Positions 5,330 through 54,191 of a stretch of 64,000 nucleotides of DNA are shown in pieces. The position numbers and the translations under genes were made by a program. The stretch lies in the NCBI GenBank assembly GCA_032718475.1, contig JAUCBJ010007287.1, forward strand, positions 1 to 64,000. The letters run 5' to 3'. Source of the stretch: Nemertoderma westbladi. Lineage: Eukaryota; Animalia; Xenacoelomorpha. Numbering within the stretch: position 1 is the first letter of the stretch; every line of letters begins with the position of its first letter. A model generated the notes under the pieces. It saw only the letters and a list, made by a program, of their open reading frames with translations, made no database searches and was not told the origin of the DNA.

Positions 5330-5693
5330 ACGATATTCTAGGATAATTGCTCTACAAATAATAATGAGTTTGTTAAATCTGTGAATCTTTAATCTTTATA
5401 ATTCTTAAGGATTGAAAACATCAAGTCCAAAGTTATTGATCACGGCCACGGCCTCGTTGAGAACATTCAAACCCATTGGTTGTAAAGTTTCCAACCGGCA
5501 CTGCCATTCACCCTCTTTAATTCTGAATTTTTGTCGGTTCAGTTTTTTGTTTGCTGAGATCGGTAGACACTCAAATTGTGTAATTCTGAAGTGTACATTG
5601 TAAGAATGACCCAAGCTACCTTCTATTACTATAACTATTCTGAAACAACTATTCCACTATAGGTATAGTACTAATAATATACCTGTTGTAGGC

Positions 5694-6164
5694 TTGTCAC
5701 CCACAGAAGTTGATAAATCGAATTTACAACTGTTACGACTTTCACAGAAACTTGAGAGACCCGAGGAATATAATCAACTCAGCGTCGATCCTTTGACTCC
5801 ATTGTCGGATAAATTCTCAAGTAATATGATTAATGGATTAATTCGTGTTGGAGGTCATATTACTAACGCTCCTATTTCTAGAGACACTATATTCCCAATA
5901 TTCGATCCCGAGATTCAAACTAAGTTGATACAGGACGTCCACTACAGACTATATCACGCCGGGAAAGAACATATATTGACTGAGATAAGGACGCGCTACT
6001 ATTTAGTCAACCCTCGTGCGGCTCTGGACCAAACATTGTGGAATTGTATACCGTGCAAGAGGATTTATAACAAACCAACGACGCAGTCAGAAGCTGCACC
6101 CCCAAAGAAAAGAGTTGACTACTATCACCCACCATTTAAACCAAAGATACACTATTTCAATTGA
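5694..6164 (+). pseudogene. BEL/Pao pol fragment (integrase zinc-binding region)
   Basis: GLIRVGG..NAP...HYRLYHAGKEHILTEIRTRYY...CIPCKR, closely similar to the same region at ~41360-41620. Confidence 0.85.
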
Positions 6165-7689
6165 CCAACCGGCCGCCTTTGTTTATTAGAACTGGCAAGG
6201 GAGCGTTCTGGTAACTAACTACGGGCAACAACGAGTTAGGCCAAAGTAGTCTAACCTACAAACTAGAGTAACGTCTTGTAGAAGGTTACGATTGAGTGGG
6301 AATTATTTATTAGACATTTAATATAGCATAAGTATTAGTATTACACTACAGTGCACGGTAGCAACAAAACCTACTTATGTTAATTGTAGGGTGAGTGAGG
6401 GAGACTTGAACCCCAGAAGTTATAATTGCTCTAAAGAACAGATAAATTAATTTTTCAGTGCCGTTTTAACTTTATCACATTACATTTATGATTGCTATCA
6501 TTATGTTAGAGTTTGAGAATTTCGGCTCTTAATTAATCTTTTTTAATGAAACCAATTATTCGTATTTTCGAAAAAGCGTCAAGTCTCCCTCAATGGGGGG
6601 AGACTTGACACCTTAGGGTGGGAGACTTGAACCCCACCTCGCATACTTGTAAAAATGCAGAAAATGCAGAAGATGTGTAATAATTACATGTTCAACATGT
6701 CTATTTTCTAGTAGAGCAAAAAATTTCAAAAAATGCGATTGTTAAATTGTTAAATTATTATCCAAAATTTTATACAAATTTAGGTGGTCGTTCACATGGT
6801 TCTCCCAACAAGAACTGAATAAATAATAGTTCATTAAATCGCATTAAAATTTAACGCGGGAAGGTAATTTTTATTAATGAATATCTTGTATAATTTATAA
6901 TCCAGGCCTATATTAATTGTTTTCCTGTAATTCTATTGATTGTGCCGCTTTCTGACGAAGTGGCATCTTGTTTAAGCTGTCAATCACACAGTTGGCGGGC
7001 TACTAACTGCATTGCAAAGAGGGAAGGAAGAGTTGGTTGGCTTGGCTTGGCTTGGCTGGGTTTATCAAGACCTCTCTCTCTCTCCCTGGCCACTCCATTG
7101 TATTCATATTCCATTGATAGCTTGGTCTGTGTAAGTGCCAATCAACTAGTTGGAGTGCTCTGGTGTAATGGTTCTCTACATGGGGGGTGTATCTTTAGGT
7201 AGACGTCAGCATTGAAGGCTTCAAGTCTCCCTCACACTTGTAGCCAAAATTAAAACAACCAAATTAAATATCGCTATAAATGATCAAATAACTATTAAGT
7301 AGTTACTAGTGTGAAATAAGTGTGAGAGTTGAGCGTTCTAATTTCTACAATTACCAACATGGCAACATGTCATCGAACAATTTGGATTATTAAAAAACCG
7401 AAACAACGTGTTTCTCTGAAAACACAAATGGTGTCTGCACAACTGTGAATGCAACCTTTTAGTACAGTTTGCATTACAGAAACACAACCTGTTATCATGG
7501 ATACACAAAATAGTGACATTCTGGTAAATATTAAATATGTATTTTGAACCGTATTTTGACTTTAAATTAATTTAAAATACGCGAATTACCTTTAAATTAA
7601 GCTAAATCGTGTGAATAATAAATATATCGTGTGAGTTTGTGTGAAGCGTATACAATTATCCAACCTTTCTTTGATGCGAGGATTATAGC

Positions 7690-8580
7690 AGACATATTTG
7701 GCTCCGGACCAGTCCCCCGTCTCCCTGGCTCGATGAGAGTTTAGCATATGGCCACGATACTTCGGTACCGCTGGTATTTGCGAACTCGCGTCTCGCCACT
7801 AAGGGATCGATCAGGGACTGCGTTGCGGTGTGTGGCTGTCTGATTGGGGAGGTGATGTCCGCCTACCCTTGTTGCAGTTATATGTTCAAACTCGCACTTC
7901 GATATGTTGAAATACCCTCTTCCGATAAACGAGGTTTTCGGGACATGCAGATGATGGATACGATGACGGCTGATCTCACTGGTGAATCTACCGAACTCAC
8001 TCAGAGTATGTCGCCCCGTATGGACGTGAGGAGGAAGAGCGGACATAGCGTGAACGATTGAACGACGAACGCGAATTAGCTTCTTTGGTCCAACCCGCGG
8101 TCCAGACTTTAATGGAAGGGTTCCAAAGTAAAGCACGTATTCACACGTCTGGGTCTGTAAAGCGTTTTCGGTGTCGCTTACAGTCATACCCAACCGATAC
8201 CTCTCGACACCGACATCTCCAACCCCAATTTAGTTGTGGATGTTGTAAACTCACCTCATAGAGCCCATATGCGACGATACTGATGAATGGATTATCACTC
8301 CTCCTGGTCGAGCTGATCAAATAAAGACTTTAATTCGGGATAATTACCTCGAAAGACGTCCTCTCCATTCCCCGTGCTATGGGACTCAGGACCACCCGGA
8401 TTTTGTCTTGCTCGGTCAACATTATGTAATGGAACTCGAGCATCCCGCCTGCAGCGTGGATTTTCTATCTCTGGTTAATCCCCTCGACGATACCGAAATC
8501 GAGCCCCTGCAGAAGCATTTCGACGATATAATAAAGTCAAATACCTTTCGACTCGACCCAAAGGGACGACAAAACATCAA
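7690..8580 (+). pseudogene. Decayed homologue of the giant element's accessory ORF2
   Basis: DERELASLVQPAVQTLMEGFQSKARIH vs DEREEAALAQPEAQILMTDLYSKTIIH; FLSLVNPLDDTEIEPLQKHFDDIIKSNTFR vs FLPLINPLDLVELEQLQKHLDQLVKANSFR (ORF 36616-37281). The left boundary is approximate. Confidence 0.85.
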
Positions 8581-28249: not shown

Positions 28250-28390
28250 GTCATCGACGGGCTGCAGCAGCCGCTACTGTCGAGGAAGGCCTGTTTCCTG
28301 CTGGCCATCCTCCAGAGCCCAATCCTCCATGGCGGCCGCTACTCCGATGGCCCAACTCCGCCCCCCGGCCGCACCCCACGGTCCTACCAG

Positions 28391-29900: not shown

Positions 29901-29967
29901 CCCGGAAGACCATGCCGACCGGGAGTTTATCGTCTCCGCGGCCGTTGCCGCGTCCGCCGCCACCCCG

Positions 29968-31353
29968 TTGGTCGAATCTCGGGACGCGCGGCTCGACCAG
30001 ATCCGGGAGGCCGGGCAGCGCGACCCCGTGTACCGTGCGCTCCTCACCACCATCTGGGACGGCTGGCTGACGTCCAAACACAACGTCACCAACGACCAGC
30101 TGCAGCCCTACTTCCAGTTCCGCTCGGAGCTGATGGTGCACGATGGCATCATTCTCCTTGGGTCCCAGCTCTATATCCCCGTCGAACTCCATCCCGAGAC
30201 GCTCCGGCTACTCCATGCCGCCCACCAGGGACTCACTAAAACTCGGGAGAGGGCGTGTTGCTCCGTCTGGTGGCCCTCCATACCCAACGACATCAAACAG
30301 ACGGTCAAGCGCTGCCAACCCTGTCAGGCAGCCCTCCCATCGCACCCACCCAAGCCACTCCAACGGAACCGGGAAGCCACCCGCCCGTTCCAAAGAGTAC
30401 ACACCGACATATTTGTCCTAGACGGCACCAACTACCTCGTTGTGACCAACGAATTCACCGGCTGGCCCACCCTTTATAAACTCGGCCAGAACTCAACCTC
30501 CCCAGTAATAATCGACTGCCTCTGCCGCCTCTTCCTGGCCACTGCGGTACCGACCGTTATCCGTCCAGACAACGGGCCCCAGCTGGTGTCCGACGCCGTC
30601 CGGTCATTCCTGTCCGTCTGGGGTGTCCGACTTGAGCCCTCTACGCCCTATCTACCGCGCACCAACGGCCGCACCAAAGCGGCCGTCAAAGCACTAAAGA
30701 AGTTGGTCCGCGGGGCGCGCCACAACTCCGACGAGATCGCGAAGGGCATCCTCGCCTTCCGCAATACCTCGCGTTACGGCGGCCGCTCCCCGGCGGAACT
30801 TTTATACGGCCGCAACGTCAGGGAGGCCCTACCCGTCCACTTCACCGCGTTTGATCCCAAGTGGCAAAAGACCTTCACAGAGCTCGACGCCACATCCGCG
30901 ACCAATCAAAACCAGCTTGCGGCAAATTACGACCGCCACGCCCACAGCCTTAAGGCTATTCCGGTTGGGACACCAGTCCTCATCCAGGACCCGACAACCA
31001 AACGCTGGACTGGCCAGGGAACCATTGCTGAGGGCCTCGCCAACCACGACTACCTGGTCCGACAGACCAGTGGCCACGTACTCCGCCGGAACCGCGTTCT
31101 ACTCCGGCAGCGCCACTTCACTACGGGGTGCGCCACCCCGACCCCACCACAGGGCGACCCCCCTCAACCAGAGACACCGAGGCAGCCAGTGGCACCTCCG
31201 ACACCGGCTCTACCACAGCCAATGTGGGCTGAAATGGCCGCCAGGCCACAGCCAGCCCCACAACCGGTTATCCCTCCGATCCAGACTAGGTCGGGGAGAA
31301 TAATAAAACCGCCCTTACATTACTCGAACAGCGAGTATAACAAAGTAGAGTAA
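29968..31353 (+). CDS. Gypsy integrase
   Basis: H..HQG...VWWP...C..C; PDNGPQ; NGRTKAAV (catalytic E apparently changed to K). Confidence 0.85.
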   Translation: MVESRDARLDQIREAGQRDPVYRALLTTIWDGWLTSKHNVTNDQLQPYFQFRSELMVHDGIILLGSQLYIPVELHPETLRLLHAAHQGLTKTRERACCSVWWPSIPNDIKQTVKRCQPCQAALPSHPPKPLQRNREATRPFQRVHTDIFVLDGTNYLVVTNEFTGWPTLYKLGQNSTSPVIIDCLCRLFLATAVPTVIRPDNGPQLVSDAVRSFLSVWGVRLEPSTPYLPRTNGRTKAAVKALKKLVRGARHNSDEIAKGILAFRNTSRYGGRSPAELLYGRNVREALPVHFTAFDPKWQKTFTELDATSATNQNQLAANYDRHAHSLKAIPVGTPVLIQDPTTKRWTGQGTIAEGLANHDYLVRQTSGHVLRRNRVLLRQRHFTTGCATPTPPQGDPPQPETPRQPVAPPTPALPQPMWAEMAARPQPAPQPVIPPIQTRSGRIIKPPLHYSNSEYNKVE

Positions 31354-33121
31354 CCCGTAACTCCGCAATAAATTGTTTATAAACTATTTGTTTTGAGGCG
31401 CTACGCCAACCCCACTGCACCTAAAGAGGGGTATGTGTAGTATCACCATAAGCCCTACGCCTATGGCCAGCTAGATGGCGTAGCTATCTTGGTATTATTA
31501 TGTTATGTTTTATGATTTCGGTACATCCATCCTGATTATACAGCAGTACATACGTACTACGGCTTTCTGCATTGCTGTACCCTGCCCCCCTGATTAGTCA
31601 AGTATCAAATTTAAACATTCACGATTTTTTGCTTCAATTGAAATTCTACATACAGGCGTGCGACATGATGGTAGGCCAGTAGCGGCGGGTGTGTACTTTA
31701 ACGACCCCCCAACAACAGCCAGAAAAGTTATTCAAGAAAGATCGATCGTTGGGGAGACAGAGGGTGGGGGGGGGGGGGGTGTAATTTGACCCATCTCGGC
31801 GAATTCATATTTCGTCTCAATGTTAAATTAAAATTTAAGGGAAATGAGCGGGTTGCAATTGCACATTATTTTAACCAAAACAATAAATTAAACACAATAA
31901 ACAGGTTACAGTTGTATTTTTAGAAGTAATCAGCTGTTATTTGCGTAGACTTTACCCTGGAGGGGTATAAAAAGTAAAACTTTTATTCGGCCGTTAGGCA
32001 AAGGATTACGTGAAAACTGCAAAGTCAGGCGACTTACTTCCAGTGCGGTCTCCCCAGAACTATACTCCCCAGAGGAAAAGCCAGTACTCATTTAGCTACC
32101 ATTTAAGGATGCAGGCAAAAATGCGCCCTTGTTATACCCGCTTTTTATTCCGGTGAAAGTCCCCTTATCTGTAGTTGGGAAATAAATCTGAGAAAGAGCT
32201 ATAAAATTTACGATGTTACACCCTACAGTATATAATTACAAAATTATGAATAAATGTATTGCTCTACTGCAGAAAGGCCACATATGATATGGCACCATTA
32301 AAATTGAATGACTGAAATAATAGTCATAAAATAAGATTACTGAAATAATGTCTACAATAAGTCATATTCGTTGAATTAAACAGTATCAATACAGTATAGG
32401 AATCAAATAGTGATTAGAATACACCATAACCCTTAATACAACATCCATTTTTAGGGGGTCGGAGGCCCCCCCCCCCAAATTTTTTTCAAATTTCAATAAA
32501 ATGCTACGATATTTGGTATGATAATAGATCGACACCTTTTCTTAATGGTGGCCTGGCCGGAATTTTTAATTTATGAGCAATTTCGATACAACAAGCCGTT
32601 AAAAATCGTCTATTTCGCAATATTTTGCCACCTCTATTGGCTTTATTTTTCGTCTTTGGAGTGAAATCTAGATATCATTACATCCGCCTTCATCTGCAGA
32701 TTCTGAATCTGAAACCCGTTCAAAATTTCACCAAGAACTTCCGGAGATATTATTAAAATACTAAGGTGTAAATTTTTGAGACGTAAATCGCTATAATTCT
32801 AATGTTTTTTTTACTAAATTCTAGAATATTAATTATGGGTAATGAAAAAACAAGATGGAGAGTTTTAAGCGCGCACCTAAATAATAATTGATATTCTAGA
32901 ATAAAGACAACAAAACATCAGAAATATTGCAATTTACTTCTCTGAATTTACACATTAGTATTTTGATAATATCTTTACCAATTGTTTGTTAAATTTAAAA
33001 CGGTTTACAGATTCGGAATCTACAGACAAAGGCGCTTCGAATGATATCTAGATTACATTTCAAAGACGTAAAATAAAGTCTACGGAGGTGGTTAAACATT
33101 GCTAAATACTACTACTACTAG

Positions 33122-34312
33122 TGTTCGCGCTTTTAGACCTTTAGCAGTTTAACCCGCTAATTTTAGGTGTCTTCTAGTTTTAGTTTATAAATCGACTTTA
33201 GCTTATAACAAGTATTTGTTACATATACGATATAAAGTTACACTAGCCGAAACCAGCCTATGCGCGACCATTCACCCACGGTTAAGGGAGACTGGATTCG
33301 GAGGCTCTGACCTTATTGCGGTGTACGCTTACTGTACTATTCGATTGATCGTTAAGATATAATCTCTGACAAATATTATTTACTTTTGGGAAATATTAAC
33401 AGTTCCTTTTGGACGTGGCGCTCTAAGTATATAAACAGAGTTATGGCTTACACTAAACACAACGGGATGGCTAATGATTTTTGTATAAAGCGCATTCTTT
33501 AGGAAATGCTTTGTTATCAGTCATACTCATGCACACTACCGCACATTGCTGCACACTGATCTGCCGACCTTCACTAAATTTGATCATATATAAGGATAAT
33601 GGCAACCGACACATGTAGGTATTATGAAATAGCATTCAATTCACTTCAAAACCACTATAATGTAAGTCGCAGTTGCTACAGGTAACTGGTCCCTCTTACC
33701 TTCAGTATATCAAGAAGATTGGGGTGTTATGATTATTTATCAATATTCTCCAAATATAACAACATATTCATCAACTTCTATCAATTAATAACCAACAGTA
33801 AATAGCAGTAAAATAATGCGGTGAGTCTGTTGCTCGGTTTGATATGTAAACAACTACTGCTATGAGTTGGCTAGTAAGTAAGATAACAGTTATACGCTTC
33901 TATAATCAAAGCCGTCGAATGTTTGGTTAAAGTCTGAAACTAAGAATAATTCCAAAGCCGATGTTCTGGGCTCAGGAAAAAGGTAAACACAACTACTGCT
34001 GACATACACAGACTTGCTCGGTTTACATAGCTCTTTTCCAAAAAAAATGAAAATCGCTCTGATTGGCTGAGCCTAGCTGAGCCGAACAAAGAACACAGAG
34101 CACAAGGGAAAGTTCCACGTCAGCAAATCAGCTGACAGATTTCGTCATCTGAACTACACTGTATTAAGAGTATTTTGACGCATTGCGGCATAAAATGGCT
34201 TGTTATGTCCGCTAAGTACACATACAGAAAAATGGCTTTTTATGTCCACTAAAAACAACTACAGAGTACTTTGCGGGAAAAATGATTAGTGATAGCCGCA
34301 AAAGCTTTTACA
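33122..34312 (-). repeat. 3' LTR of the giant BEL/Pao element
   Basis: TGTAAAAG...GCGAACA on the minus strand, preceded by PPT-like GGGAGCGG (34313-34320); about two dozen substitutions versus the 5' LTR, counted by eye. Confidence 0.95.
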
Positions 34313-34390
34313 CCGCTCCCAGAAAATGGGATTGAATTCTATAAAATATAAAAAATCACAGTTTCTAAAATATAAAAATACTCTAAACAG

Positions 34391-37300
34391 TTAGTCTTTC
34401 TTGCGCGGACGGCGTTTACGCAGTTTTTTGAGGCTAGCAAGAGTCCTTTTCTCTTTGGGCGAGCCACTTTACTAGGAGGGCTATAACTCCTGGGTGAAGG
34501 GTGCAATACAATTGCATCAGAAGGTTTAGGATTATGGTCGGTGTATCCGCCGGTCGAGGTACCTGGTTGATCGATTTCAACCTCAGTGGAGCGAGGTCAA
34601 ACGGCCTTTAGAGCGCGTTTCAGGACAGCAGCTCTTACTGGTCCCTGGCGAGTCGTCTGAACGAGAGCAGTGGGTGGACCATGGGTAGTGAGAAACTTCC
34701 TCGGTTTAATGGTTCTCTCCAACTCTCGTTCTCGGGCACGATATTCGTAGGGCTGTCGATGCACTTCCTGTAACTCTGGATGCGAGTTGATAAACAAATC
34801 GCCATATTCCGGATCTTGACGGATGAAGTTGATCAAATTATATGAATTAATATCATTAGGATTAATGTTCCTGAGATATTTACGAACAAATTTGGTTGAA
34901 ATACACTCACCAACACGCTTCATTAGTTCGTAACTCGGTGTGCGTGATTTTTGTTCAACAGACGCGAATAGATACGGGTGGAACGCATAAACTCCTTCGT
35001 AGGCGCGTCCAGGGTAATAGCGATGGCGTGACTCACAATGTAAATCCGCATTCGCTTCCCAAGCGCGGATGTAGCGTAGGGTAATCATCTCATCTACGCT
35101 TTCCAGATCGCGGCTAAAAGGGCAATCAAAACTGGCATGTCCTATAAGTTGACAATGATGGCATTGAGTCATAAATTTGGGGCAGACTGCGAAAATGTGC
35201 AAGTTATTGAGTCTGCAATACACACAATAGATCTCCATCGCCGGTTGTTCATGGAAATAAGAGCAAAGTATGTCGGAGTCCATAGGGGTGAAATGATCTC
35301 TCGATGCGCATAATCGGCAACGTTTTCGAGAGATATAGTTGGCATGCCAATAGTCGTATGCGGTGAGACACTGTGGACCTTGATACCATTCCAAGACATA
35401 GTCGTTGTTGCTGCTCCGGGGCTCTGTAGGCTGAATCTCCTCTGATTCTAAGCATATTGGTTCGTCTTCCAGTTGCATAGCTGAGGTAGGTGTGGCTGTC
35501 TCTTCAAGCAAACCTGCTGTCTGAACTTCCACGATAGAATAACCCGTGGGGATTTGAGGTCTTTGTATAATAGAGGAATGTAAGTTCTGTATACAAACAT
35601 CCTGGAAAATGGCAAATCCAGCGCTGTTTAACTTCTCAGCAGCTGAGTCTCTTAGGCTGAGCTTAGTCAGAGCGCGGTCCTTGAACTGACTATCAACGTT
35701 ACGGAACGGAGTCAGAAAGCGCCTGAAACATTCGAAGCGGATGAATTTATTGTGTTCATCTAGCTTGGCGAGTTTGGTTCCAAGTATTAAGGGATGGGCG
35801 CGTATAGTACGACTGCACACATCGGCTAGCCAACCGGCAAGTGCGGCGTTTTCAAAGATCGTGTATATAGCTAAGGAGGGACGAAGTGGAACACTCATGA
35901 AGCTATACACGACACCAGGTGTGGTCAATGGTCCGTCAAAGTATAATCGAGAATAATGGTCTCCATATACTTGTTGATAGTTGATAGGATTTCCGACCTT
36001 GAAATTCCATCCGTATTCTTGAAAGGCAAGATGTCCGATGGAGGTTCGTTGTACTTTAGTAATGCCGCTGGGTGTATTGGCATACATAGTGCGGAAGAAA
36101 CCTCGGCCTTCTGCCCAGGGAGCAATCAGCTGAGTATCTACAAAAGGATATGGGATATTCTCCATGTTCCTAAAGTCGTTTTGGAGATCTCCATAAACAG
36201 CTGAGCCGATTTTAAGGATTCTTTCGTTAAACAACATCTCGAGAACGGGCTGGGGTAGCATAGATCCATCTATACCCATGGCCTGTTTGCGCTCGGTATC
36301 GGTAACATAACGCTGCGCGAGTTCGAATTGTCCATGTCGGAGTTTCTTTTGTATCTCGTGAGGGTCTCAAAAGAATAATCAATCACGTCGGAACACGCTC
36401 GAGTAAATACGTGGGTAGAACCAGCTAGTCCTCGTATATGTATCATGCGCGTAGTTCCAAGTTCTCCAACTGGAACGCTACCTTCGTTATCGTAAGTGAC
36501 AACTCCATACATCTCTATAACGTTAAGAGTTTCGTTCCACTCTTTAGTGGCGTTTTCTAGGGTCATTCCCACTGGATGCCACAAGGTAGCGCATTCGCTA
36601 GCGTTAGGTAGATCTCTATACTTCAAATACTGTATATGGAGATGTTTCTACATCTCCATATCGTTGTATTCTTTCCTCCTCGAATAACACGTCGAGATTC
36701 CAGTGGACTAATCGAGTTTTGATAAATTCATCAAGATTATATGGAGGTGTTACATCCTTCTCTATTCTGGAAACATTATAGGGTTTTCGGAATGAGTTTG
36801 CTTTCACTAACTGATCTAGATGTTTCTGCAGTTGTTCGAGCTCGACGAGATCGAGAGGATTTATTAGTGGGAGGAACCTTAGACTATGTGTAGGATCTTC
36901 CGGTTTTACCATATAATATTGAGTGAGATTGACATAATAAGGGTGGTCTTTGATCCCATAAAACGAGTTCGGTAAAGGTCTAGCGCGTATGTTGACCTCG
37001 TGTACCATACGACGGACAAGATCCGCTCTATTGTCCGGAGGTTCAACGATTATACCGTCGACACGAGCGGCTTTGATTGGCGGACGTTGCAACATAGGAG
37101 CGTCAGCGATAAGATCTCGAGATCTTAGGTTGATATCAACCGGTTGAGGTTGTGCCGTGGCGAAGAGTTTGTCTCCGAAATGGGGAACCATCAAAGGATG
37201 AATGATGGTTTTGGAATAGAGATCAGTCATAAGAATTTGAGCTTCTGGTTGGGCTAAAGCTGCTTCTTCTCTCTCATCCATTTCTATGTGTTTCTCTTCG

Positions 37301-38643
37301 ATCTGACTTTCCTCCGCTTGTCGTTGTAAATGCTCGTCTAGGAACTCTTGTAGAGAATAGGTTCGTCAAAGTTCGATGTCTTCCTCGAGATTCTGGATTT
37401 CTCGATTGAACTGGGGTAAAGCTAGTTCCTTCACCGCTTGGACTTGCTGCTGCAATTTGCGTTTTTCTAAACAATCGTAAGTTCCTTTTCCGATCTTTTG
37501 CCGAATAGCATCTAACGCGTTTCGTACAACGCTCTCCTCAACTTCGGTGACAGGTTGTATCGGGGTTAAACCGGGACGATTGTAAGGGTTGAACGGTGAT
37601 CTTATATGCCCGCATCCCAATCCGGTTAGGTAAGAAGGGCGAATACCTAGCGAGCCCACTACCGGAGTGCCACCGATTAATTGTTCGGGTAACACAAGAT
37701 CTTTAAATAGTGAGTACAGTTCAGGGGGATCCGTTATACTATTAGGATCAAGCGTTTGAGGTCTCACTAAGGAATGAGGAGGTCTGACCGAGTATTCCGG
37801 AACTCTGATCATGGGTTTATTTAAGGATCGTTTGAGTCGAGCGAGTGTAGGTGATACGTCGAACAAGTTTCGCTCGAAACTCCCATAGGTATAATGAGTA
37901 AAACTGTGTTTAGCGCAACGTCTCCGCGGATGTTTATGTCTTTCCGTTTGCTGGTTGGGTCTAGGGCATTCATCACAATAATACCAAAGACGCACGTCCT
38001 GCAGGGGAAACGCGGGTGATTTTTCTCCAGTTTTACAATATTCTTCCATCTGTTCGAAGCTATCTGGGACGACAGGTAGCGGTCGATCGGCGGTAAGATA
38101 CATCATTGTGAAATAGAGCCTTTTGAGTTCCATCGTAGGGTCATGATTTATACCTTGAGGATATCGAGTTTCTAGATTTTGTTGACTGGCTATATTGAGA
38201 TAGGTTTCTCTCAAGAATTCCAGATAATCGTTGAAGTCGTTGCGTTTATCCGGTTCTTCAACGTTTTCTCTTTCGAGTCGGTTTCGAATAGAGTTCTCGT
38301 GTTCTATTCTCGGTTTATCGTTCCGACTCCGCTGGGTATGATATTTAAATAAAACCATTTCCCTTTCGGTGTCTATATCGTCCGTATCGTGTAGGTCGAT
38401 AGGGTGGCCAGTAGTTAAAAAGTCCATATATGTACCATTACAATGCGTGTAGCGAGCGGTGAATTTTCTATAGTCCAATTCACGCGTGAGTTGCTCTTGG
38501 GACATTGGCGGTTCGATATAATGACCATCGTCCTCAGTAGTAGTTGGACTAGCGTCGCTGCGTATTAAGCTATCAACAAACGCTTGTAACGGTAGGGTAT
38601 ATCGTTACCTGATACCAAGATCATCTTCTATTAACTCAGTCAT
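34391..38643 (-). pseudogene. Accessory ORF2 (~1,400 aa reconstructed): unknown N-terminus, DEDDy 3'-5' exonuclease, CCHC zinc knuckles, basic tail
   Basis: Listed ORFs join through in-frame stops (38605, 37366, 34597) and frameshifts (~36630, ~36362). Motifs VVTYDNEG, LPQPVLEMLFNERILKIGSAVYGD, FVDTQLIA, SIGHLAFQEYG, PLRPSLAIYTIFE; knuckles CVYC.....H....C and CHHCQLIGHASFDC. Confidence 0.8.
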
Positions 38644-40279
38644 AGCTGCTATATGAGTTTATCAATATTATAATTAGTTATAATTAGGCTAGCGGGCGTC
38701 GCTGCCTACCACTCACGGCCCCCGGACAGCGCAAAATCCTCAGCGCCGGTGTACCGTCGTCGCTGTGTTTTTTGCCAACATAGTAGCTACACAACGACAA
38801 CGATAACCAGCGCGAGTCACTCCACTGTCCGTCCCAAGGGCTTGGATTTACTTCAGGTTCTTACTGCAGAGGTAGGGCTACTTTCACAACTGCGACTCAC
38901 TACTGTAAACACACTTTAGTAGTAACATTCACCTATAAACGCACAAATTCCACACAACTGTCACAAATTGTACACATTTGGGCCATTTGTCCGTTAGTCA
39001 AGTGCCTTCCAGAATGCCACGTTGTTATTATGTATCCTTGGATACTAGCAGTGTGCTATTTATTCCCCTATGCTATAAAATGGGGCAAGCTTTCTATTGT
39101 TCTTTTAACTCGCTTCTAATTCTAGCGTGGTTGTTGCTATGGTGACATTATGGAAAGCTAGCAGTAGAATTAGGGTAATTCTCATGCATACAGATCTGGG
39201 ATGCTATTTAATAGTAATTCTTTAATTGTCAATATCCCTCTTTATATATGATTTTATGAATTTTATCGGCTATTGACTATATATTGGAGATTCTCGCACA
39301 CTAATACACTTAATAGGGTGAATCTCCGCTCCCATGATCTATTAATTAATGGAATTTTGGGAATGTTATAAATTGTATAAAATAACAATTTATCAAATTT
39401 ATTAAATAGATGAATTTATATTTATTCCCGTAAATTTTATTATTTATCCTTAAAACAGACCTGATTTTATTCCAGAGCATATCTGGGGACTAGGATCCTT
39501 AATTCTAGGAAATTTGTCTTTTTAAGAGTATCGGTAAGTGCTACAATATCTTAATCGACTAGAATTTTAAAAGATCTGTTTTTGACAGATTTTTATAAAT
39601 ATTAAATAATTAATATTTAAGATGGGCACCGAATTATTCCAGAACTTGTCTGGGGACGTTAACCACTGATTCTAGAATTTTGTCTTTCAAGTATGTCGGT
39701 GGGTGCCGCGATATCTTAATCGACTAGAATTACAGATGGTCAAAGGGTTTAACAGATTTATTTTGCGTTTTACGCTACTGTTAAAGGGACATCAAGCTAC
39801 TATATTTATTATTTTAATATACGGTATGAGAGCAATATCGCACGAAGCAATGTCAGTGAGAAGAGGCAAGTCGTTTCCAAGGTCTACCCAGAGCTTGGTT
39901 TAGCCGAGACACGAGGATCTGAACTTTGCATTCCTAATACTCTGCTTACCAATAATACTTGATATAGTAGGAGCTTTATTGTACTTTAATAAGTACGGAT
40001 ATTTCATCTTACTGTAGTCACGTATTTATAATATGATACGGACAGTAAGGAAAGAGAAAAAAGAATAATTTCTTGCCGTCGCACTAAATATATAATATAC
40101 GTAATTAAGTAATAAGACTAATATATTGCACTAATCTACTAAATAATCGCTAAAATAACATTCTACTAAATAAAATTAAAGAAAAACGATTATAATAAAA
40201 TTACATAATAGTACATACAGAAATATAAAATAATAAAAATATATAAAATAATATAGTCGCACACCCACTCCAAACGCTG

Positions 40280-43200
40280 TCATGTTGGGGAGTCCCTAGA
40301 TGTTGGTTGGATTAGGGAGGTGGTCGTGGGAAGAGTATCTTGCCTTCCATAGTTTCCGGAGAGTTCTCTGTCTCTTTCCAGTAAACATAAACAACCAACT
40401 GGGCGGTTGAGTTGCTGTGTTTCGAATACAATTCCTGGTTTCTTAAAGTTACGTCGCATGACGACGAGTTCTACCAATCGCACTAAACCATCATCTGAAA
40501 TATGAGTCTCAATGATACGACCTGTCTGCCACCGCTTACGTGGAAGATCTGATTCCACAATAAGGACCATGTCTCCGGCGCTGACGTTTTCTTGCTGCGC
40601 AAACCACTTAGTTCGAAGTTGTAGCGTAGGCAGATAATGTTTTTCGAAATGGTCAGCGAAACGACGGGATAACAACTCCATAAGTTGCCAAGTATTCGTC
40701 TCCGTCCGTGATTTCCGATCGTGGGAGCATGGCTACAGGTTTCTTCAGTAGGAAGTGCGCCGGTGTTAGCGCTTCCAGGGAATCGGGACTTGATGAGACT
40801 GGCATAAGCGGTCTCTCGTTGAGATAGGCCGCGATTTCCTCCATTAACGTCTGCAAAAATTCGTCTGTGAGATACGCACGGCACGGCACTATAAAGTGAA
40901 ATGGGGTCTTCACGCTCCTGATTAATCTCTCCCAACTTCCTCCCCACCAAGGGGCGTCGGCGACGTTGAAAGTCCAGCTAGACGCTGTTACCCTTAGCTG
41001 ATCGTCCACCTGTCTTTGGTTCCAATCTTGGACGTAAGCCTTGATTTCATTGTTGGCACCAATGAAGTTTGTTCCCTTATCAGATCTCATCGTTTTGCTA
41101 GTTCCAAAGCGAGTGATCTGTCGGCGTAGACTCAGTATGAAACTGTTGGTAGATAGATCATTCACCATGTCTAGATGGATCGCTCTACAAGTCATACAGA
41201 CAAAGATGACACACCATTGCTTGACCATAGTCCTAGCACGATATACTTCAATAGGGCCAAATAAATCCACACCGGTATTAGTAAAGGGTGGTTCATAGAA
41301 GCTTACTCGTTCCCTAGGTAATTCTGCCTCTTGCTGTGTTAAAGCCCTACTGAATTCTTTCCTACAGGGTATACATACAGTTCCTAAGAACTTGGTTCAG
41401 AGCGCTACGGGGTTTATGAAAATAATAGCGAGTTCGAATTTCGCTAAGAACTCGTTCTCTACCAGCATGATAAAGCTTACTGTGAACATCTACAATCATC
41501 TTGATTTGTATTTCAAGATTTGTAATGAGTATGGGAAATTTAGTGTCAAAGGATAATGGAGCATTAATTAGTCTTCCTCCAACGTGTATTAACCCATCTA
41601 TCATTGTGCTAGAGAAACGATCCTTTAAGCGCATCTGTGGATTTCTCAACAACAGGAAATACTTATTGGAATCCTCGTAGCATTGCAGGAGTCTCAGTAT
41701 CTGCTTATTGGTTTCTTCATGCTCCTGGTAACTTATCTTCTCCTTCAGAAATCTGTCTGATATCTTGTATTTGGGAAGATCTTTAACAACATGGACCTGC
41801 GCAGATGTCAGTGGGGCGGTATCACTAGCGATCTTCGTCCTGGAGTAGTGATGATAAAAACATCGCTTTAAATAAGCAATGGCCTTACAAAGCCGATTCC
41901 AGGAGCTATAGTGATGTATCGCTCTCTGCAGGAGGGGTGATAGTCCTTGCGAGACGTCTGGTGTTCCAGATTTCCAATCTCTCTCTCTGATTTCTACAAC
42001 AGACTTGTTTGTGGCGGAGAATTTTGGATCCAAAGCGTCGTCTCCGGAAGTGTGTAGTACAGACAGATCTATCACGTGTTTAAATAACTTCGATTTACTC
42101 GCCCGGGTTTTAGGTTTGACTTTCTCCGCTCCCTTGGCTTGTCTAATCTCAGCCGTTGTAAGATGAGGAGGCCATTCGTCCTCTTCCTTGCTTAGGAAGT
42201 CGGGTCCACTTAACCAGTCTGGAGTATCTATCAATTCTTGTGGAGTTGCTCCTCGGGAGGCGATGTCAGCTGGATTAATCATCCCAGGGCAATGTTTCCA
42301 TTGATCTATCTTCGTGCGACTAAGTATAATGGCTACTCTGTTGGTCACGAAGACGCTGAACTGACAGACTTCATTGGTTATATACTCCAGCACGAGTAAA
42401 GCATCAGTCCAATAGACAGTTTTCTCCAGTGGATAGTCGATCTGTTCTGTTACTTTCCGGCCGATGGCTGTAGCGTATAGAGCCGCTTTTAACTCCGCTC
42501 GAGGAACTTTCAACTTGTTGTTTATCAAGGCCTTAGAGGTAACCAAGGCGACGTTAATTCCATCCAAAGTTGCAACTCTCAGGTAGGCTACTATACCTAT
42601 TCCCATATTGCTGGCATCTCCAAACACATGGAGTTGATAGGAATACGTGGGGAGAACATGACCAAAATAAGAACGGGAAATCGTAAAATTCTTGATGGAT
42701 GGTAGAGAATCTTCCCATTTCATCCACTTCTTTAGCAGTTCTCCCTTAAGTGGATCATCCCATGAGTGGTTTTCAAGCCACATTTGTTGTACTAAACTCC
42801 GAGCAATCAATATAACTGGGCTAATAAATCCCAATGGATCGAAGTAAGTGCTCAGGATACTTAAACAAATCCGTTTAGTCCGAACTGGATCATCTCACTG
42901 TTTTAGCTAGAAAAACAGGATATCTTTCTCTGTGTCCCATTTCAAACCAAGCGTCTTGGTTTCTGGAAGATCGTCCTTGATAAGGTCTAGCTAGATCTTT
43001 AACTCCTCGGTCTTCTACCGGGATCGATTCCAGAAATTCACGGGAGTTACTGGTGAATTTAGTTAATCGAAATCCACCTCTTTTCAAGCACTCTACCGTT
43101 CCTTTGGCGACATCAATGGCTTCTTCCACCGATGAGAGGGACTTTAAATTATCGTCCATGTATATATCCCGTTTGATGTTGTCGATAACTTCTTTGGAGA

Positions 43201-46200
43201 AGGGTCAGCAGTGGTGCGCACTACTGAGCAGGAGTTTGAAGGACTTGAGATGATCCCAAAAGCTTGGATGGTCATCCAGTACTCCACCGGTTTCTGGTTT
43301 AGGTCTCCTTCAGGCCACCACAGAAATCGTAGGCTGTCTCGATCCCTATCTAGCACCTTAACTTTTAAGAACATGCCTTCTATATCCGAAGCAAAAGCAA
43401 TCGAATATTGTCGTAATCTTAAGAGTATTCCCAATAAGGATTGGAGTAAGTTGGGTCCCGGCAATAACTTGGAGTTGGATTGGCCCATCTAGAGGGCGGA
43501 GCCGTCAAATACTACCCGGACTTCATTGGGTTTACCGGGTTTGGGAACGTAATGATGTGTTAAATAGTACGTTCTCTCAGTTATGGGTGTTTCTTTCGGT
43601 ACTCGCTCCGCATATCCCTTGTCAATGAATTTCTTCAACTGGGTCTTGTACATCTCCTTAGCTGAAGCATTTGCCATAAGGCGTCAATGTAGTTGAGCAA
43701 TTCTCTTCTCCGCCAAGGGTCGGTTGTTTATAAAATTTGGTTATCGCTTTCGAAATGGTAGACAAATTTCATACCTCCCTTGATCCCTAAGGAAACGTGT
43801 AGTCGTTGCCTGAATCTGCTTGGCTCTTTCTTCTTCTACCGACAAAGCCTTATCGTAGGAATTAGGCTCTACAGCCTCTTGAGTGAAAAATCGTACGGCG
43901 TGTTCGTCACAAACCTTTGCGTTGTAACGATCTATCACTTCATTCAGTTCGTCGTTGTAATCGACTTGTCCCACTGGATGGATGAGGTGACACAGGTTCA
44001 CTTGGTTTTGTCAAGTTTCGCTTTCCGTAAGGAGGTTGATGGTATTCTCCTCGTCGAATAGTTGGTGAATATCGTCATTATCTGAGGAGTATGGTGTTCC
44101 CTCGTGAGTGTCGTCTCCCTCACTGTTTTCCCCTTCCCATTCACTCACCTGGTAAACTTGCTCTTTAGGTAGCCTTTCCATGAGTGTCCTACTGGAAGGA
44201 CCAGTAAAGAACCAACCTACTCTAGTTCTTCCCGCATAAGTTTGCAATGGTTGCGGTTGAGCAGGCCATTTCTCCAATGTCTCAAGCGCCTCATGCGCAT
44301 TTTGGCCGATGAGTATTTGTACCCCTGGGTAGTCGGTGTTAAATCTAGGTATTTCATGCCGCTGGGTCAAATCATCCTCATCCCAGTTATAAGGTTTCAC
44401 TTGGCTGGTAGCAAAGTTCTTTATTGCCACAATTTTTACTGACCTTATACTATGTTTTCCTAGTTCATCCTGGGGTGTGGACAACGCGCCTACATAGTAT
44501 TCCGTAGCTACTGTAGATTTCCAAACCTGCATAATTCCTGAAAGGTTCAACTTAGTTCGGAACTTGGGTTGTCCAGCAAAGATATCTTTGGCTAGTTCTT
44601 TGTCGATGAATGTTCCTGTGCTGCCGGAGTCAAGAAGGGCGTTCACTATATAACTCCCTTTCAACCCGTGGACTCTCAACTGCACTACGGGAAATTCTCG
44701 GATTCCTACGTTGGAAGTTGGCGCTTTCCAAGATGGTTGTCGGTCAGGAATAGTTAGGGGGAGCTCACTATCGGTTTCAGTTTCATACGTAAGTGCTCGA
44801 TACACTGCGGTGTTTATTAGATAACAGGCTTTGTTTTCGTCGGAAAATTCATCCGTGTAGAATCCTTCCATCTCAGAAATTTGGTCAGTGTCGTTCACAT
44901 AACTGAATTGGACATGTAGTTCGGACTCACTTACCTGACTCGGGCTGTTTCTTTCGAATTCGGTGTGCAACAAGATATGATGTTTCGCGCCGCACTTCGC
45001 ACACCTTGCGTCGGAGTAACAGGTTCGCCGTTGGTGTCCTTGTCTGAGACAATTACAACACAACCACTTATCCCACATGACGTCACGTCTGTCCTTTAGT
45101 GACTTCTTCAAGAATTCATCACATCCACTCGAGCAATGGGGCCCATCGCACAACGCACATTTTGGTTTGATGTTACTTACTTTACCTTGGGTAGTGTTGT
45201 GCACACTCGTTCTTTCCTCGGGCTTTCTTCCATGAATTCTCTTAGGAGACGTGGGAGGAGTTTTTGTTGTATGTTCTCTCCTGTCACTGGTTCGAGACTT
45301 AAATTTACTTACATCCTCGGGCGCTTTGTTAACATAGTAAGATCTTTCGGTGTCTTTCCCGTTGCTCTCCTCTTGAGAGGTCTGGCTTTCGCCATCGTCT
45401 GTATAACACACTGGTGTCACTTTTCTCCTAGAAACGGGTTTTTCACTTACCTTATTTCAGGTGTCTTCTCTCTGGACTGCTTTAGGAGCTGTAATTTTAC
45501 CTTTCCATCTAAGAATGACATGAGATCAGCCATGGTAGGGTCTCTTCGTTGTTGTTCCATCAGATACAGAACTCTTTTGTCCCAATGAGTACCCACTCCA
45601 CCCTTTGGCAAGGTAGATGCTACAGCTCCAATAACCATAGAACTCTGATACTCATGAGACTTACCTATCCAATCTAATTGTCTACCAATCTCCTGGATCT
45701 CATCTGAAAATTCTATAATCCCGGTGCTAAGAACCTTTCGGGGCGCTACTAATTTTGCATACAAATATCTAGCTATGTTATTCCTATTACCATACCTGAT
45801 GTTTAGTGTATCCCAAACTTGTCTTAATCCATCTGGATGTCCAATAAATTTTAACGCCATTAACTTGGGAGATCCTTCCAAGCACTCGATGAGGAATCTA
45901 AGTTTCTCTCCGTTAGAGAGCACAGAGTTCTGTATGTTATCTTTATAATATTCATTAAAAGGTAACCATTTCATCTCATCTCCATTGAACTTGACAATTT
46001 CTCCCACCTTTACCGCTTGACGGGCTTCGGTTCTAGCCATTTGACGCGTAAAACTTTCTTGGGCCATCGTATTATTTAATATCGAGTTATCGGTATATAG
46101 ATTTCTCGGATTATGATCAGGTCTATATGGAATATCATTATCAACAGGTTTATCATTACCCTTAATAGGGTTTACTAAAGGAGTTTCTACTTTACTAGCA

Positions 46201-47828
46201 GTATAGATGCGTGTAGGCTCCACACCTTGCGCATGAAATACCTCAGACCTAACAGGTTGACACATTGTTACAGGGGGTGGTGTTATAACCCTTTGTATAT
46301 TTACTAATTTATCGCGTTCTAACGCGATACTCTGCTGCACTTCTTGCAGTTCTAACCTACCCTCTCTTACTTTAACTGCTGCGCAGTCTCTTCCATTTCT
46401 CGGACGTGCTGGGAGGAACGTAGGCGCTGTTCTTCCAATTGTCCGAGCAGGAGATCTATCCCCCGCCGTCCCCCATCCACCCACTCGACCGCCGAAGCGG
46501 GAGCCGCCAACATAGTAGCGGGTAGATGAGGGACAACGGGCGAGAAATCTTTGATGTCTCGCTCGGCGTCCAAGACTGGGACTGTTTCTGCAGCTATTCT
46601 ATTGGGCACAGATAATTTAGTACTGTGCAAAGGGAATTTAGAGTTAGGCTCTGGAAGTACAGGGGTCTCTATCACAGAAGGAGTGGCTTCGAGAACAACA
46701 GGATTAATTATTTCAGGCTCATCTACTATAGTAGGGAGTCTTTCTATTCTAATAATTTGGTCTGTGGGTTCTGGACTACATAAGTTTACACTAACTAGTT
46801 GCCTTCTCACAGCTGGGGGCAAATTAGGCAATTTCTGGTGGTGGGGCGTTCTTCTACGTCGGCTGGAACGAGATCTATTTCCTCTGCCTTCAGGATCTGT
46901 CGTATCGCCTTCATCAGATGAGGTAAACCCCTGCCGCTTAGGAGTTGATCGACTTAGCAGTTGCATATCACTAGCTGTTACCTGTTTATTTAAGTAGTCT
47001 TGCTTCTCTTGGAGATTTTCCAACTCTAGTTGGGTGGTCTCTTCAGATGCTCTCCGTTCTGCTTCTACCGCTGCCGCTTTTCTTTCTGCCTCTGCCTCTG
47101 CTTCTGCCACGGCCGTTTTTCTTTCTGCCTCTGCCATTGCAGCTTTTCTTTCTGCCTCTGCCGCTGCCGCTTTTCTTTCTGCCTCTGCCACTGCAGCTTT
47201 TCTTTCTGCCTCTGCCGCTGCCGCTGCCACTGCTGCTACCTTTCGGTCTTCTATACGTTTTTTCTTTAATTGTTCTTCTTGTTCCCTAGCGATGCGGATG
47301 CTTTCATCAAATTTAGTTCGATTTGCTGCTAGCCTTTCCGCATCTAACGAGTCTAGCACAAATTTGGCTCCCTCACTATTAGGGTGAAGTCCAGCTAACC
47401 GTCTCCTTAACTCTTTGTCACCTATAAATCGCTGATAGTTTGACAGATAGATGTCAATGGCGTCCTTCTTCAGAGGTTTCTCTGATGTCGCTTCGCTTTC
47501 CACCTGAGAAAAGGTAGCGTCTGTTGATTCTCCTTGGGTCGAGCGCTCAGCTAGCTGAATTTTCCACTGTGTCGTTCCTTGGACTTTAAGACTCACTCGT
47601 TGGAACCAAGTCTTTACGGCAACTTGCAATGACGTGTCTTGGCTTCTCTTCGAGGCTTCTTCAAAGGCAGATAGGATTAGTCTGATTCTTAAGATTCGTT
47701 CTCGAACTTGATAAAGCAGCGCTCCCTGCTATTGAGGTCCATGAGGTTGTTGAAACAGGTGTTCCTCTAATCGCTCCAAAGAGTTGAAGAATCCCTGTAC
47801 ATATCCTGCTGCCGACCTCTTCGGTATA
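40280..47828 (-). pseudogene. BEL/Pao gag-pol polyprotein (multiple stops and frameshifts)
   Basis: KFNGDEMKWLPF gag domain, three Cys/His knuckles, protease ALLDSGS, RT (DIEGMF, YMDD), RNase H FGDAS, integrase (GVDLFGP, SDKGTNF, PWWGGSWERL), C-terminal RTKW...GDMVL domain. Confidence 0.92.
47050..47235 (-). repeat. In-frame 27-bp repeat encoding (AEAERKAAx)n in gag
   Basis: Repeated TTTCTTTCTGCCTCTGC; helical, alanine-rich translation. Confidence 0.85.
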
Positions 47829-49464
47829 TAATTTCAGCTTAAATTTATAATAAATATAATAAGCCTATCGTAAATACCGGTATGTCAATTATTTTATAAT
47901 AACTGAATTTCTGAATTTTAGGGTTACTTTACGTTACTTTATTACCGTTATTTAAGCAGTGGTCTAACTGATATTAAGACCTAATTGATGCCTAACAGGT
48001 CTACTATTTTATAAATCTGTTGGAGTTGATTTATAATATTTGTACCCATTTAATGGGTGTTTTGTTACAATATTTGAAACAAATGTTATTCTTTCTGGTT
48101 AGGGGTCGCTACACAAAAGCTAAACGCTCTCAGTGGAGTGCTACCTGTTGGACACTAAAACATATAATTCTACTTGACTAAGTTACTTATTACTACAAAT
48201 TACTTACAATTACGGGTGGGATTACAATCTCTAAATAAACAACAACAAATTACACGTACAAATTTTAGGGTAATTTTACAGGGAATCTACAAACCAGTCT
48301 AACAGGGAGTGTGAATGTCTGGTTATTACTAACGGACAGGATACTACGGTATTTGAAAATAATTAAGCAGTAGTAAATACACCGTGTTGTCTAGATAGGA
48401 AAATACCACCGTCTGACGACTTATAGCCTTTTTGCTATACAGCACTATAAGTACTACGTTATGTACCCGGAGTGTCCTTACCTAGAAGTTAATTACCGCA
48501 GCCTACCAGAGCTAACATGCCTATTAATCACTTTACAACACAAATATACTGTCTACAAACTAAATTACTTTCGGAAAGCACTGTACACTAAACCCTAAAT
48601 TAGGCACAAGTACTTATATAACAAATAACCAGCTGTCTAAAAATACTTGTACAGCTAAAAGAACCACGGTATCTGCTGGAGTGACTAGCGCATAAAATCA
48701 CCAGTCTTTACCTACGCCAAGCATCCCTGACGTAGTACCGGGGTTAATTTAACTATAACGGTATGTATAACATACACAATTACTGTAGGAATTAACTTGG
48801 GGTATGTAGGTTGCGAATACTTGCATAAACTCTGAATAATAAATATTACGCTACCCTTACAGACTACACAAACAAAATACAGACCAAACGCTGGCAGACT
48901 ACTATCAAGCCTAAATAAACTACAGTATATGCAGACTCCGAAATGGTTAGTTAGTATGTGTTCTAACCGAGTAGTACGACTTATTCTTTCGGGGGGGATT
49001 TACCTTACAGCACTGGATGCCCCCACATTCCTAACTAGTACTTTATCGGACATACACTCTACACACACTGCAATCTCTTCAGACCTAACAACAGCCAGAC
49101 AACAATCCAGCCTACAAATTATCTGTACAATCTGAGCAGGCTTACACGTCTTCTGCTCAATATTAACTTACAGATAAATAAAACTGACAGAAATAAGTAA
49201 AATCCCAATAAAAAACCAGGGCTGCAGTCCCCAATTAAATATCAAGACCTCCCGGTATACAATTATCAAAATCAAATAATACTGATGTACCTGTACTGCT
49301 GTAAGTACCGGTTCGGGTGGTTATGTAGTTAGGCCTACAGGTTACCGCTCGACCGGTACTTTCGACTTTATTGCCTACGTTGCAATAAAGAAACAAGATA
49401 ACTGTTATTGTTCTTACCAGAACAATAGACAAATGTATTTATTGTCTACACTGCAAATAAAGAA

Positions 49465-49476
49465 TATAACTGTTAT
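49465..49476 (-). promoter_or_regulatory. Candidate self-priming primer-binding site
   Basis: Sense ATAACAGTTATA directly abuts the 5' LTR and is exactly complementary to LTR sequence at 50238-50249 (33883-33894 in the 3' LTR); no TGG tRNA PBS. Confidence 0.55.
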
Positions 49477-50667
49477 TGTTCGCGCTTTTAGACCTTTAGC
49501 AGTTTAACCCGCTAATTTTAGGTGTCTTCTAGTTTTAGTTTATAAATCGACTTTAGCTTATAACAAGTATTTGTTACATATACGATATAAAGTTACACTA
49601 GCCAAAACCAGCCTATGCGCGACCATTCACCCACGGTTAAGGGGGACTGGATTCGGAGGCTCTGACCTTATTGCGGTGTAGGCTTACTGTACTATTCGAT
49701 TGATCGTTAAGATATAATCTCTGACAAATATTATTTACTTTCGGGAAATATTAACAGTTCCTTTAGGACGTGGCGCTCTAAGTATATAAACAGAGTTATG
49801 GCTTACACTAAACACAACGGGATGGCTAATGATTTTCGTATAAAGCGCATTCTTTAGGAAATGCTTTGTTATCAGTCATACTCATGCACACTACCACACA
49901 CTGCTGCACACTGATCCGCCGACCTTCACTAAATTTGATCATATATAAGGAGAATGGCAACCGACACATGTAGGTATTATGAAATAGCATTCAATTCACT
50001 TCAAAACCACTATAATGTAAGTCGCAGTTGCTACAGGTAACTGGTCCCTCTTACCTTCAGTATATCAAGAAGATTGGGGTTTTATGATTATTTATCGATA
50101 TTCTCCAAATATAACAACATATTCATCAACTTCTAACAATTAATAACCGACAGTAAATAGCAGTAAAATAATGCGTTGAGTCTGTTGCTCGGTTTGATAT
50201 GTAAACAACTACTGCTATGAGTTGGCTAGTAAGTAAAATAACAGTTATACGCTTCTATAATCAAAGCCGTCGAATGTTTGGTTAAAGTCTTAAACTAAAA
50301 ATAATTTCAAAGCCGATGTTCTGGGCTCAGGAAAAAGGTAAACACAACTACTGCTGACATACACAGACTTGCTCAGTTTACATAGCTCTTTTCCAAGAAA
50401 AATGAAAATCGCTCTGATTGGCTGAGCCTAGCTGAGCCGAACAAAGAACACAGAGCACAAGGGAAAGTTCCACGTCAGCAAATCAGCTGACAGATTTCGT
50501 CATCTGAACTACACTGTATTAAGAGTATTTTGACGCATTGCGGCATAAAATGGATTGTTATGTCCGCTACGTACACATACAGAAAAATGGCTTTTTATGT
50601 CCACTAAAAACAACTACAGAGTACTTTGCGGGAAAAATGATTAGTTATAGCCGCAAAAGCTTTTACA
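49477..50667 (-). repeat. 5' LTR of the giant BEL/Pao element
   Basis: Direct repeat of 33122-34312; contains sense CAGCCAATCAG (~50414-50424) and TGACGTGG (50470-50477) promoter-type motifs. Confidence 0.95.
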
Positions 50668-50672
50668 ACTAG

Positions 50673-54129: not shown

Positions 54130-54191
54130 AGTAACCGTCGAATTTGTTCGTTGACGTTCGAATTTGTAAGACTCTCATTTAAGACCTGAAA

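Follow-up and report, generated by a model that had tools for sequence, protein, structure and literature searches.

A giant BEL/Pao-type retrotransposon of Nemertoderma westbladi with a large accessory gene that probably encodes an RNase D/WRN-type exonuclease domain

A stretch of 64,000 nucleotides from Nemertoderma westbladi (contig JAUCBJ010007287.1 of assembly GCA_032718475.1, positions 1 to 64,000 of the forward strand; hereafter the window) contains a 17,546-bp BEL/Pao-type long terminal repeat (LTR) retrotransposon with an additional gene, open reading frame 3 (ORF3). ORF3 lies between pol and the 3' LTR, in the position of an env gene and on the same strand as gag and pol. As judged from its sequence, it very probably encodes an exonuclease-like domain of the RNase D/WRN type, and it likely helps the element to handle host silencing RNA or the element's own RNA. 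A preliminary description made from the letters alone had placed a gene of approximately 1,400 residues here, inside the LTRs of a BEL/Pao element, and the LTRs, the domains and a frame of about 1,412 codons were all found.

The gene is read from four listed minus-strand frames (37366-38604, 36616-37365, 36270-36647 and 34597-36366), which join into segments of 668+92+631+21 codons. Between 34600 and 38640 the main frame holds 11 stops in 1,347 codons, versus 65-90 stops in each of the five other frames. The single frame first described, from the ATG at 38643 through in-frame stops at 38605, 37366 and 34597, is present in the sequence. Its frameshifts had been placed near 36630 and 36362, and other copies of the element have length differences at 36637 and 36356. 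An end near 34391 after one more shift had also been predicted; the basic tail KKLRKRRPRKKD ends there, and a length difference at 34456 is consistent with it. Each of the three length differences falls within 10 bases of a placed frameshift or fits the predicted tail.

These copies were viewed through short contigs of four public runs (X1, X3, X4 and X5) out of seven listed, and contig depth was not taken as copy number. None of the listed runs is registered as RNA, which speaks neither for nor against expression. All four runs cover 30 of the 30 bins of the ORF3 region, and X1 alone, which may come from the source sample itself, provides 22,144 short contigs on 4.4 kb, most of them 90-99% alike. 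The element family is many-copy. The share of depth with length differences at the three positions varies widely by run (38-100%, 8-82% and 0-100%), as is to be expected where gaps lie close to the ends of short contigs. In X1 and X3 about 99% of the depth differs from the window at the stop at 38605, and in X4 and X5 100% does; neither the stop at 37366 nor that at 34597 belongs to the 40 variable sites that were examined out of 446 listed. Because the copies depart from the window at each of the three frameshifts and at one of the three stops, the gene is cargo of the family that is broken in this copy. A view of 18 kb contains 361 length differences; among the 12 with the best support, the spacer before ORF3 holds seven and ORF3 itself one. 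A variant without 35470-38273, which removes the whole exonuclease and most of the N-terminal part, was found in X4 (depth 2918) and X5; it keeps the ORF3 start and the knuckles, and its length is compatible with a kept frame.

The exonuclease-like domain was approached by several searches. When 1.84 billion proteins were searched in full with HMMER, the one match was P0001 (E 8e-6, 29% over residues 18-185), an intact protein of 648 residues from ENA that forms a single-member cluster. In an Atlas feature search with residues 1-210 of the window frame, 28 of 30 matches were PF01612 clusters (top score 0.91), and residues 25-275 of P0001 gave 25 of 30 (top score 0.94). The top NCBIfam match was RNase D (E 0.002, residues 39-83). 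A home-made profile built on 30 PF01612 domains from bacteria gave both the window frame and P0001 13-14 bits, versus at most 6.8 bits in 2,000 shuffles; the best other window frame of at least 60 residues reached 3.7 bits. In a multiple alignment, TYDNE, GDL and Y-x3-E stand in register with ExoI, ExoII and ExoIII, and the ExoII Asp is present with its K...D and DTQ context. The motifs named at the outset (TYDNE, FVDTQ and others) were recovered, together with the Glu that replaces Asp at ExoIII. Y-x3-E is found in both the window gene and P0001, and the domain is therefore a DEDDy-like variant rather than a canonical member.

The exonuclease assignment is supported by several independent results, each of them modest. 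The top Atlas match shares 148 features, fewer than the 170 typical of family members, and shuffled sequences reach an Atlas score of 0.9 in 4-10 of 100 cases. The profile and NCBIfam scores derive from the ExoII region alone. The ExoI segment by itself is at chance (270 of 1,000 shuffles against P0001; profile P 0.19), and ExoI is assigned because of the alignment register. ExoIII has Glu rather than the canonical Asp, so that activity is not guaranteed. No exonuclease match was returned by Pfam for the window fragments, and an unseeded AlphaFold fold of the window fragment has a predicted local distance difference test (pLDDT) score of 31.6.

Residues 21-280 of P0001 were folded from an alignment that also contained the window fragment and the 30 known exonuclease domains of the profile; pLDDT was 78.6 and the predicted template modelling score 0.78. 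The seeded model matches WRN, Nibbler, RNase D, Exd1 and RRP6 with Z 13.7-14.8 and a root-mean-square deviation of 2.9-4.0 Å over 173-201 residues, the top ones being tied, and EXD2 was ranked first by Foldseek, yet with Z 9.7. The seeded fold indicates compatibility with an exonuclease fold rather than its discovery, in a partly circular manner and with no subfamily assignable. Of the DEDDy fold initially claimed, the RNase D/WRN-type reading is supported by the sequence searches, whereas the fold itself was reached through the seeded relative and not through the window's own fragment.

Other searches were negative or set aside. A word-index protein search with the 589-residue frame had no match among proteins of near or greater length, and one with residues 30-270 of P0001 found only P0001 itself. 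Locus scans of viral and metagenome contigs gave no relative of the window protein or of P0001, no match to the exonuclease fragment or to a pol fragment came from PDB sequence searches, and PHROGs gave nothing useful. The knuckles matched Air2 in PDB at no better than E 0.12, which is a lead at most. A tblastn search of phages and plasmids gave matches at E 3-10 only, and one of the six plasmid matches was RNase D; these were not counted as evidence. The 'invariant D42/E44' of one alignment (A1) was rejected for the window row as an artefact: ExoI is missing from that row, and YVTDTER stands aligned at that place; YVTDTER cannot be ExoI because it is too close to ExoII.

P0001 carries SIDVE, an ExoII Asp, DTQ and Y-x3-E (D62, E64, D130, Y229 and E233) and three knuckles. 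Its knuckle region aligns with that of the window with a score of 64, which none of 1,000 shuffles reached (best 63). Like the window gene, P0001 combines the core D, E, D, Y and E with a low-complexity linker, three knuckles and a basic C-terminal end; unlike it, P0001 has no long N-terminal part and is known as a protein alone, not as retroelement cargo. The fusion of exonuclease and knuckles is not unique, since P0001 has the same layout. The fusion had been called unrecognised elsewhere, which holds for the remainder of the protein: the first ~700 residues of ORF3 have no relative outside the window, including in a PDB sequence search of the N-terminal frames. The CCHC knuckles were likewise recovered in part, as three Cys/His knuckles follow the exonuclease and only the last is canonical. 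No signal peptide or transmembrane anchor was found in the four main frames, where the top 19-residue hydropathy is 1.24. ORF3 is thus not an envelope gene, because it lacks a hydrophobic or transmembrane segment.

Protein-level selection on ORF3 was examined by codon position. Two of the 40 listed sites lie inside a stop codon and were left out, and 18 of the 38 analysed are third positions (p 0.05). Sites were divided at a threshold of 98% of X1 depth, which was our choice. Those private to this copy are spread over the codon positions as 10/6/5 (n=21), and those that vary among copies as 3/1/13 (n=17; binomial p 0.0003). The counts come from a selected subset of sites and are not a ratio of nonsynonymous to synonymous substitution rates (dN/dS).

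A second, diverged family in the window provides a further comparison. Its accessory-gene fragment lies approximately 1.8 kb behind its integrase fragment and, with 43% identity along 92 residues (E 2e-20), resembles the domain that precedes the exonuclease; its internal part has no DNA similarity to the element by blastn. Identity between the two families by codon position is 0.52/0.73/0.37 in the accessory gene and 0.57/0.67/0.34 in pol. The NG86 method gave proportions of nonsynonymous and synonymous differences (pN and pS) of 0.37 and 0.79 on the accessory segment, which was picked by protein similarity and is hence biased; no dN/dS value is drawn from it, because pS is saturated. The second family's fragment ends before the exonuclease, so that only the upstream domain can be traced there. 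The codon patterns support the view that ORF3 has been kept under protein-level selection in the element family.

Table 1. Positions in the window of the element, its accessory gene and the second family
Feature	Positions	Strand	Remark
Whole BEL/Pao-type LTR element, 17,546 bp	33122..50667	-	gag, pol and ORF3 decayed in this copy
Target-site duplication ACTAG, 5 bp	33117..33121 (second copy 50668-50672)	.	
5' LTR, 1191 bp, TG...CA ends	49477..50667	-	self-comparison
3' LTR	33122..34312	-	98.0% identity to 5' LTR
Primer-site position, 12 bases	49465..49476	-	exact complement of LTR positions 419-430
LTR segment complementary to primer-site position	50238..50249 (3' LTR 33883-33894)	-	candidate self-primer
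Gag (DUF1759, Cys/His knuckles) and aspartic protease	44011..47728	-	spread over three frames
Pol: reverse transcriptase with YMDD, RNase H PF05380, integrase zinc domain and core, DUF5641	40280..44010	-	several stops and shifts
AT-rich non-coding spacer, ~1.64 kb	38644..40279	-	many length differences among copies
Accessory gene ORF3, ~1,412 codons	34391..38643	-	three stops and three frameshifts in this copy
Domain directly before exonuclease	36787..37062	-	43% identity to second family's fragment
RNase D/WRN-like exonuclease core	35851..36497	-	frameshift between ExoI and ExoII
ExoI TYDNE	36497-36483	-	
ExoII Asp in GDLQND	36192-36175	-	
FVDTQ motif	36144-36130	-	
ExoIII Y-x3-E (YTIFE)	35865-35851	-	
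Three Cys/His zinc knuckles	35122..35319	-	only the last canonical, CX2CX4HX4C
Basic C-terminal tail KKLRKRRPRKKD	34391..34429	-	possibly like a nuclear localisation signal
Purine-rich tract adjoining 3' LTR	34313..34321	-	
Integrase-region fragment of second, diverged family	5616..6233	+	48% amino-acid identity
Accessory-gene fragment of second family	8064..8551	+	same strand as its integrase fragment

The element is assigned to the BEL/Pao type by its signature domains, its LTR ends and its short target duplication (Table 1). The two LTRs are identical at 1167 of 1191 bases in a self-comparison of the window. PF05380, the Bel/Pao RNase H according to one source (PMC3985635), is matched at E 1e-36; the integrase zinc domain is of the H2C2 type, and the aspartic protease match is weak. 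BEL/Pao elements are described solely from animals, as far as one report states (PMC2774666). The virus taxonomy committee ICTV gives a range of 4.2-10 kb and an 18-nucleotide primer site for tRNA-Arg or tRNA-Gly (PMC8742986), and an upper bound of 15 kb was applied in a survey (PMC3118150). At 17,546 bp the element is above both. It is therefore atypical for BEL/Pao in two traits, its size and its lack of a tRNA-type primer start.

Several details of this copy were also observed. A leader of approximately 1.75 kb lies upstream of the Gag frame, and its part at 49340-49476 holds two similar hairpin-bearing units (fold z-score -2.5). The N-terminal Gag frame is long (46367-47728), with an Ala/Glu/Arg/Lys repeat of 27 bases at 47049-47233. 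The element sits in an inverted-repeat element with arms at 32466-32557 and 50770-50861. Contigs of three runs bridge the whole element between 33097 and 50707; they would stem either from an allele that lacks the element or from further copies of the inverted-repeat host element.

No tRNA-type primer start was seen after the 5' LTR, where host tRNAs were not compared directly, and neither Rfam nor ARAGORN gave a match. Instead, the 12 bases that come first pair with the element's own LTR, and the pairing ends precisely at the LTR border. None of 100 shuffled LTRs reaches a 12-pair match, and the 12-mer is held by eight of 20,000 simulated LTRs. A related LTR (11269-12334), which no internal part adjoins, differs at the 12-mer site. 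The 12-mer is nearly palindromic, and two bases alone set the complement apart from a direct repeat. Self-priming of the element is a candidate only, because of this near-palindrome and because the transcript start is putative. The element resembles Tf1 in that its primer-site position can pair exactly, over a short stretch, with an LTR of the element itself; Tf1 differs in that it is Ty3/gypsy and in that its primer end is produced by RNase H.

The preferred reading of the whole mechanism, which is possible but held with somewhat less than even confidence, is that ORF3 would supply an accessory RNase by which host silencing RNA directed at the element would be removed or cut shorter. The layout, which joins a nuclease, a flexible linker, RNA-binding knuckles and a basic tail, suggests an RNA-directed 3' trimming enzyme; an accessory role is suggested because the gene is separate, behind a 1.6-kb spacer, and because X4 and X5 hold the exonuclease-free variant. 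The message for ORF3 would be spliced or sub-genomic and begin near 38643, and the basic tail would direct the protein to the nucleus. The knuckles would bind single-stranded RNA and hold the substrate, while the D-E-D-(Y)-E site would bind metal and trim 3' ends. The targets would be RNAs that lack protection, for instance precursors of small RNAs, fragments made by slicer and antisense transcripts. The fold relatives MUT-7 and Nibbler act on small RNAs, according to a published account (PMC11347159). If the preferred reading is true, an RNase that the element turns on silencing RNA would add a new kind to the counter-defences of transposons. Three considerations oppose it. Mature PIWI-interacting RNAs have 3' 2'-O-methyl ends that resist such enzymes, and MUT-7 and Nibbler promote silencing; a pro-silencing or neutral role is possible for both reasons. 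In addition, the self-priming signature may offer a competing substrate.

With that substrate, the exonuclease would trim the unpaired 3' overhang of a primer made of the element's own RNA back to the 12-bp duplex, from which the reverse transcriptase would start. Such primer maturation is unlikely, although it accords with the missing tRNA-type site, with the pairing of the first 12 bases with positions 419-430 in both LTRs, and with the likeness of the knuckles to nucleocapsid fingers. The transcription start near LTR position 419 is putative and the 12-mer nearly palindromic, the primer end of Tf1 is the work of RNase H, and an exonuclease-free variant exists, though help in trans is possible. 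Enzymes of the DEDD fold do trim single-stranded 3' ends, as one report notes (PMC5408684). The fullest form of this proposal is rather improbable: a giant self-primed BEL/Pao lineage whose env-slot, knuckle-guided D-E-D-E exoribonuclease would trim the element's own RNA into a primer, with neither a tRNA nor an RNase H cut. If true, primer trimming would be a new way of starting reverse transcription.

It is equally unlikely that the protein is an RNA-binding adaptor with weak or no catalysis, comparable to Exd1, Egalitarian or Maelstrom, which would serve export, localisation or shielding of element RNA. The replaced ExoIII Asp would suit an adaptor, as would the half of the ORF3 protein without an assigned function, and the fold neighbours of the P0001 model include Exd1 (Z 14.3) and Egalitarian (Z 13.0). 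Dead domains usually lose catalytic residues, however, and two proteins only 29% alike retain all four acidic positions as well as the Tyr. Inactive DEDD derivatives that keep RNA binding are noted in the same report (PMC5408684).

It is very unlikely that the exonuclease is a proofreading or end-processing partner of the reverse transcriptase that enables copying of an unusually long genome. The element has 17.5 kb versus 4.2-10 kb for the family (PMC8742986), and the fold neighbours include WRN and polymerase proofreading domains level with RNases, but the extra length is largely ORF3 (4.3 kb) and non-coding DNA (a 1.7-kb leader and the 1.6-kb spacer), the exonuclease is not fused to Pol, and the rotifer carriers discussed below are ordinary LTR elements. 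Least probable is a passively captured host gene or a false homology, which would fit the absence of close relatives in the searches, the unseeded pLDDT of 31.6 and the modest value of every sequence score, but not the many copies, the two families, the second organism label obtained by weak coverage, the third-position bias or the four independent searches that lead to one fold.

Other elements were observed elsewhere in the window. A third BEL/Pao element (55482-63598, minus strand) has a 12-bp repeat expansion in pol at 57272-57629 and an inverted-repeat insertion at 60716-62145, and no extra ORF was seen behind its integrase. A GC-rich gypsy-type element occupies 26919-31613 on the plus strand, with short LTR-like repeats of approximately 170-180 bp. 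Decayed frames at 3069-5051 (minus strand) have a weak GIY-YIG match (E 0.035) and are possibly Penelope-like. A 22-bp tandem array at 54127-54970 reverses its orientation near 54890. The segments 1-1540 and 10125-11660 were rejected as an LTR pair; they are a duplication, 99.7% identical, that includes part of the related LTR.

Among known systems, WRN, Nibbler/MUT-7, EXD2, RNase D, Exd1 and RRP6 are fold neighbours of the seeded P0001 model; the WRN/Nibbler/RNase D group has 11-19% identity, the canonical ExoIII Asp and cellular genes. In the literature searched, which left part of the older literature outside its scope, no paper on a BEL/Pao exonuclease was found. A nematode Cer element is said to contain an exonuclease domain, which would lower the novelty. 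The Cer13, Atlas and Tas belpaoviruses have a third gene in the same position as ORF3, and it encodes a membrane fusion glycoprotein (PMC9094657, PMC535339, PMC554778), whereas the window gene has no transmembrane segment.

The closest published arrangement is that of bdelloid rotifers, in which the LTR elements Juno and Vesta, and also Athena/Terminon, carry a DEDDy-like ORF3 with a DEED motif (PMC5408684, PMC6431247). Shorter DEDDy accessory ORFs in rotifer and some nematode retroelements had been mentioned in the preliminary description, and those of rotifers are on published record (PMC5408684). Like the rotifer ORF3, as far as the published text describes it, the gene in the window lies as an ORF of its own behind pol and ahead of the 3' LTR and very probably encodes an RNase D-like exonuclease domain with an altered acidic motif. 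Unlike it, by the same description, the window gene has a BEL/Pao host and Glu at ExoIII rather than DEED, and adds three knuckles and an N-terminal part of ~700 residues to reach ~1,410 residues. The arrangement is thus a variant of a known one and not wholly new, because the rotifer exonuclease ORF3s are published. New here are the BEL/Pao-type host, the D-E-D-E site shared with a distant intact relative, the knuckle fusion, the very large size and the evidence of selection on ORF3; a possible link to self-priming would be a further addition. The rotifer report of 2017 leaves activity and role open (PMC5408684). The present element extends exonuclease cargo in retroelements to a BEL/Pao-type, high-copy family; P0001 offers an intact natural relative of the same layout that is usable for an assay, and the ~700-residue N-terminal part may contain further new domains.

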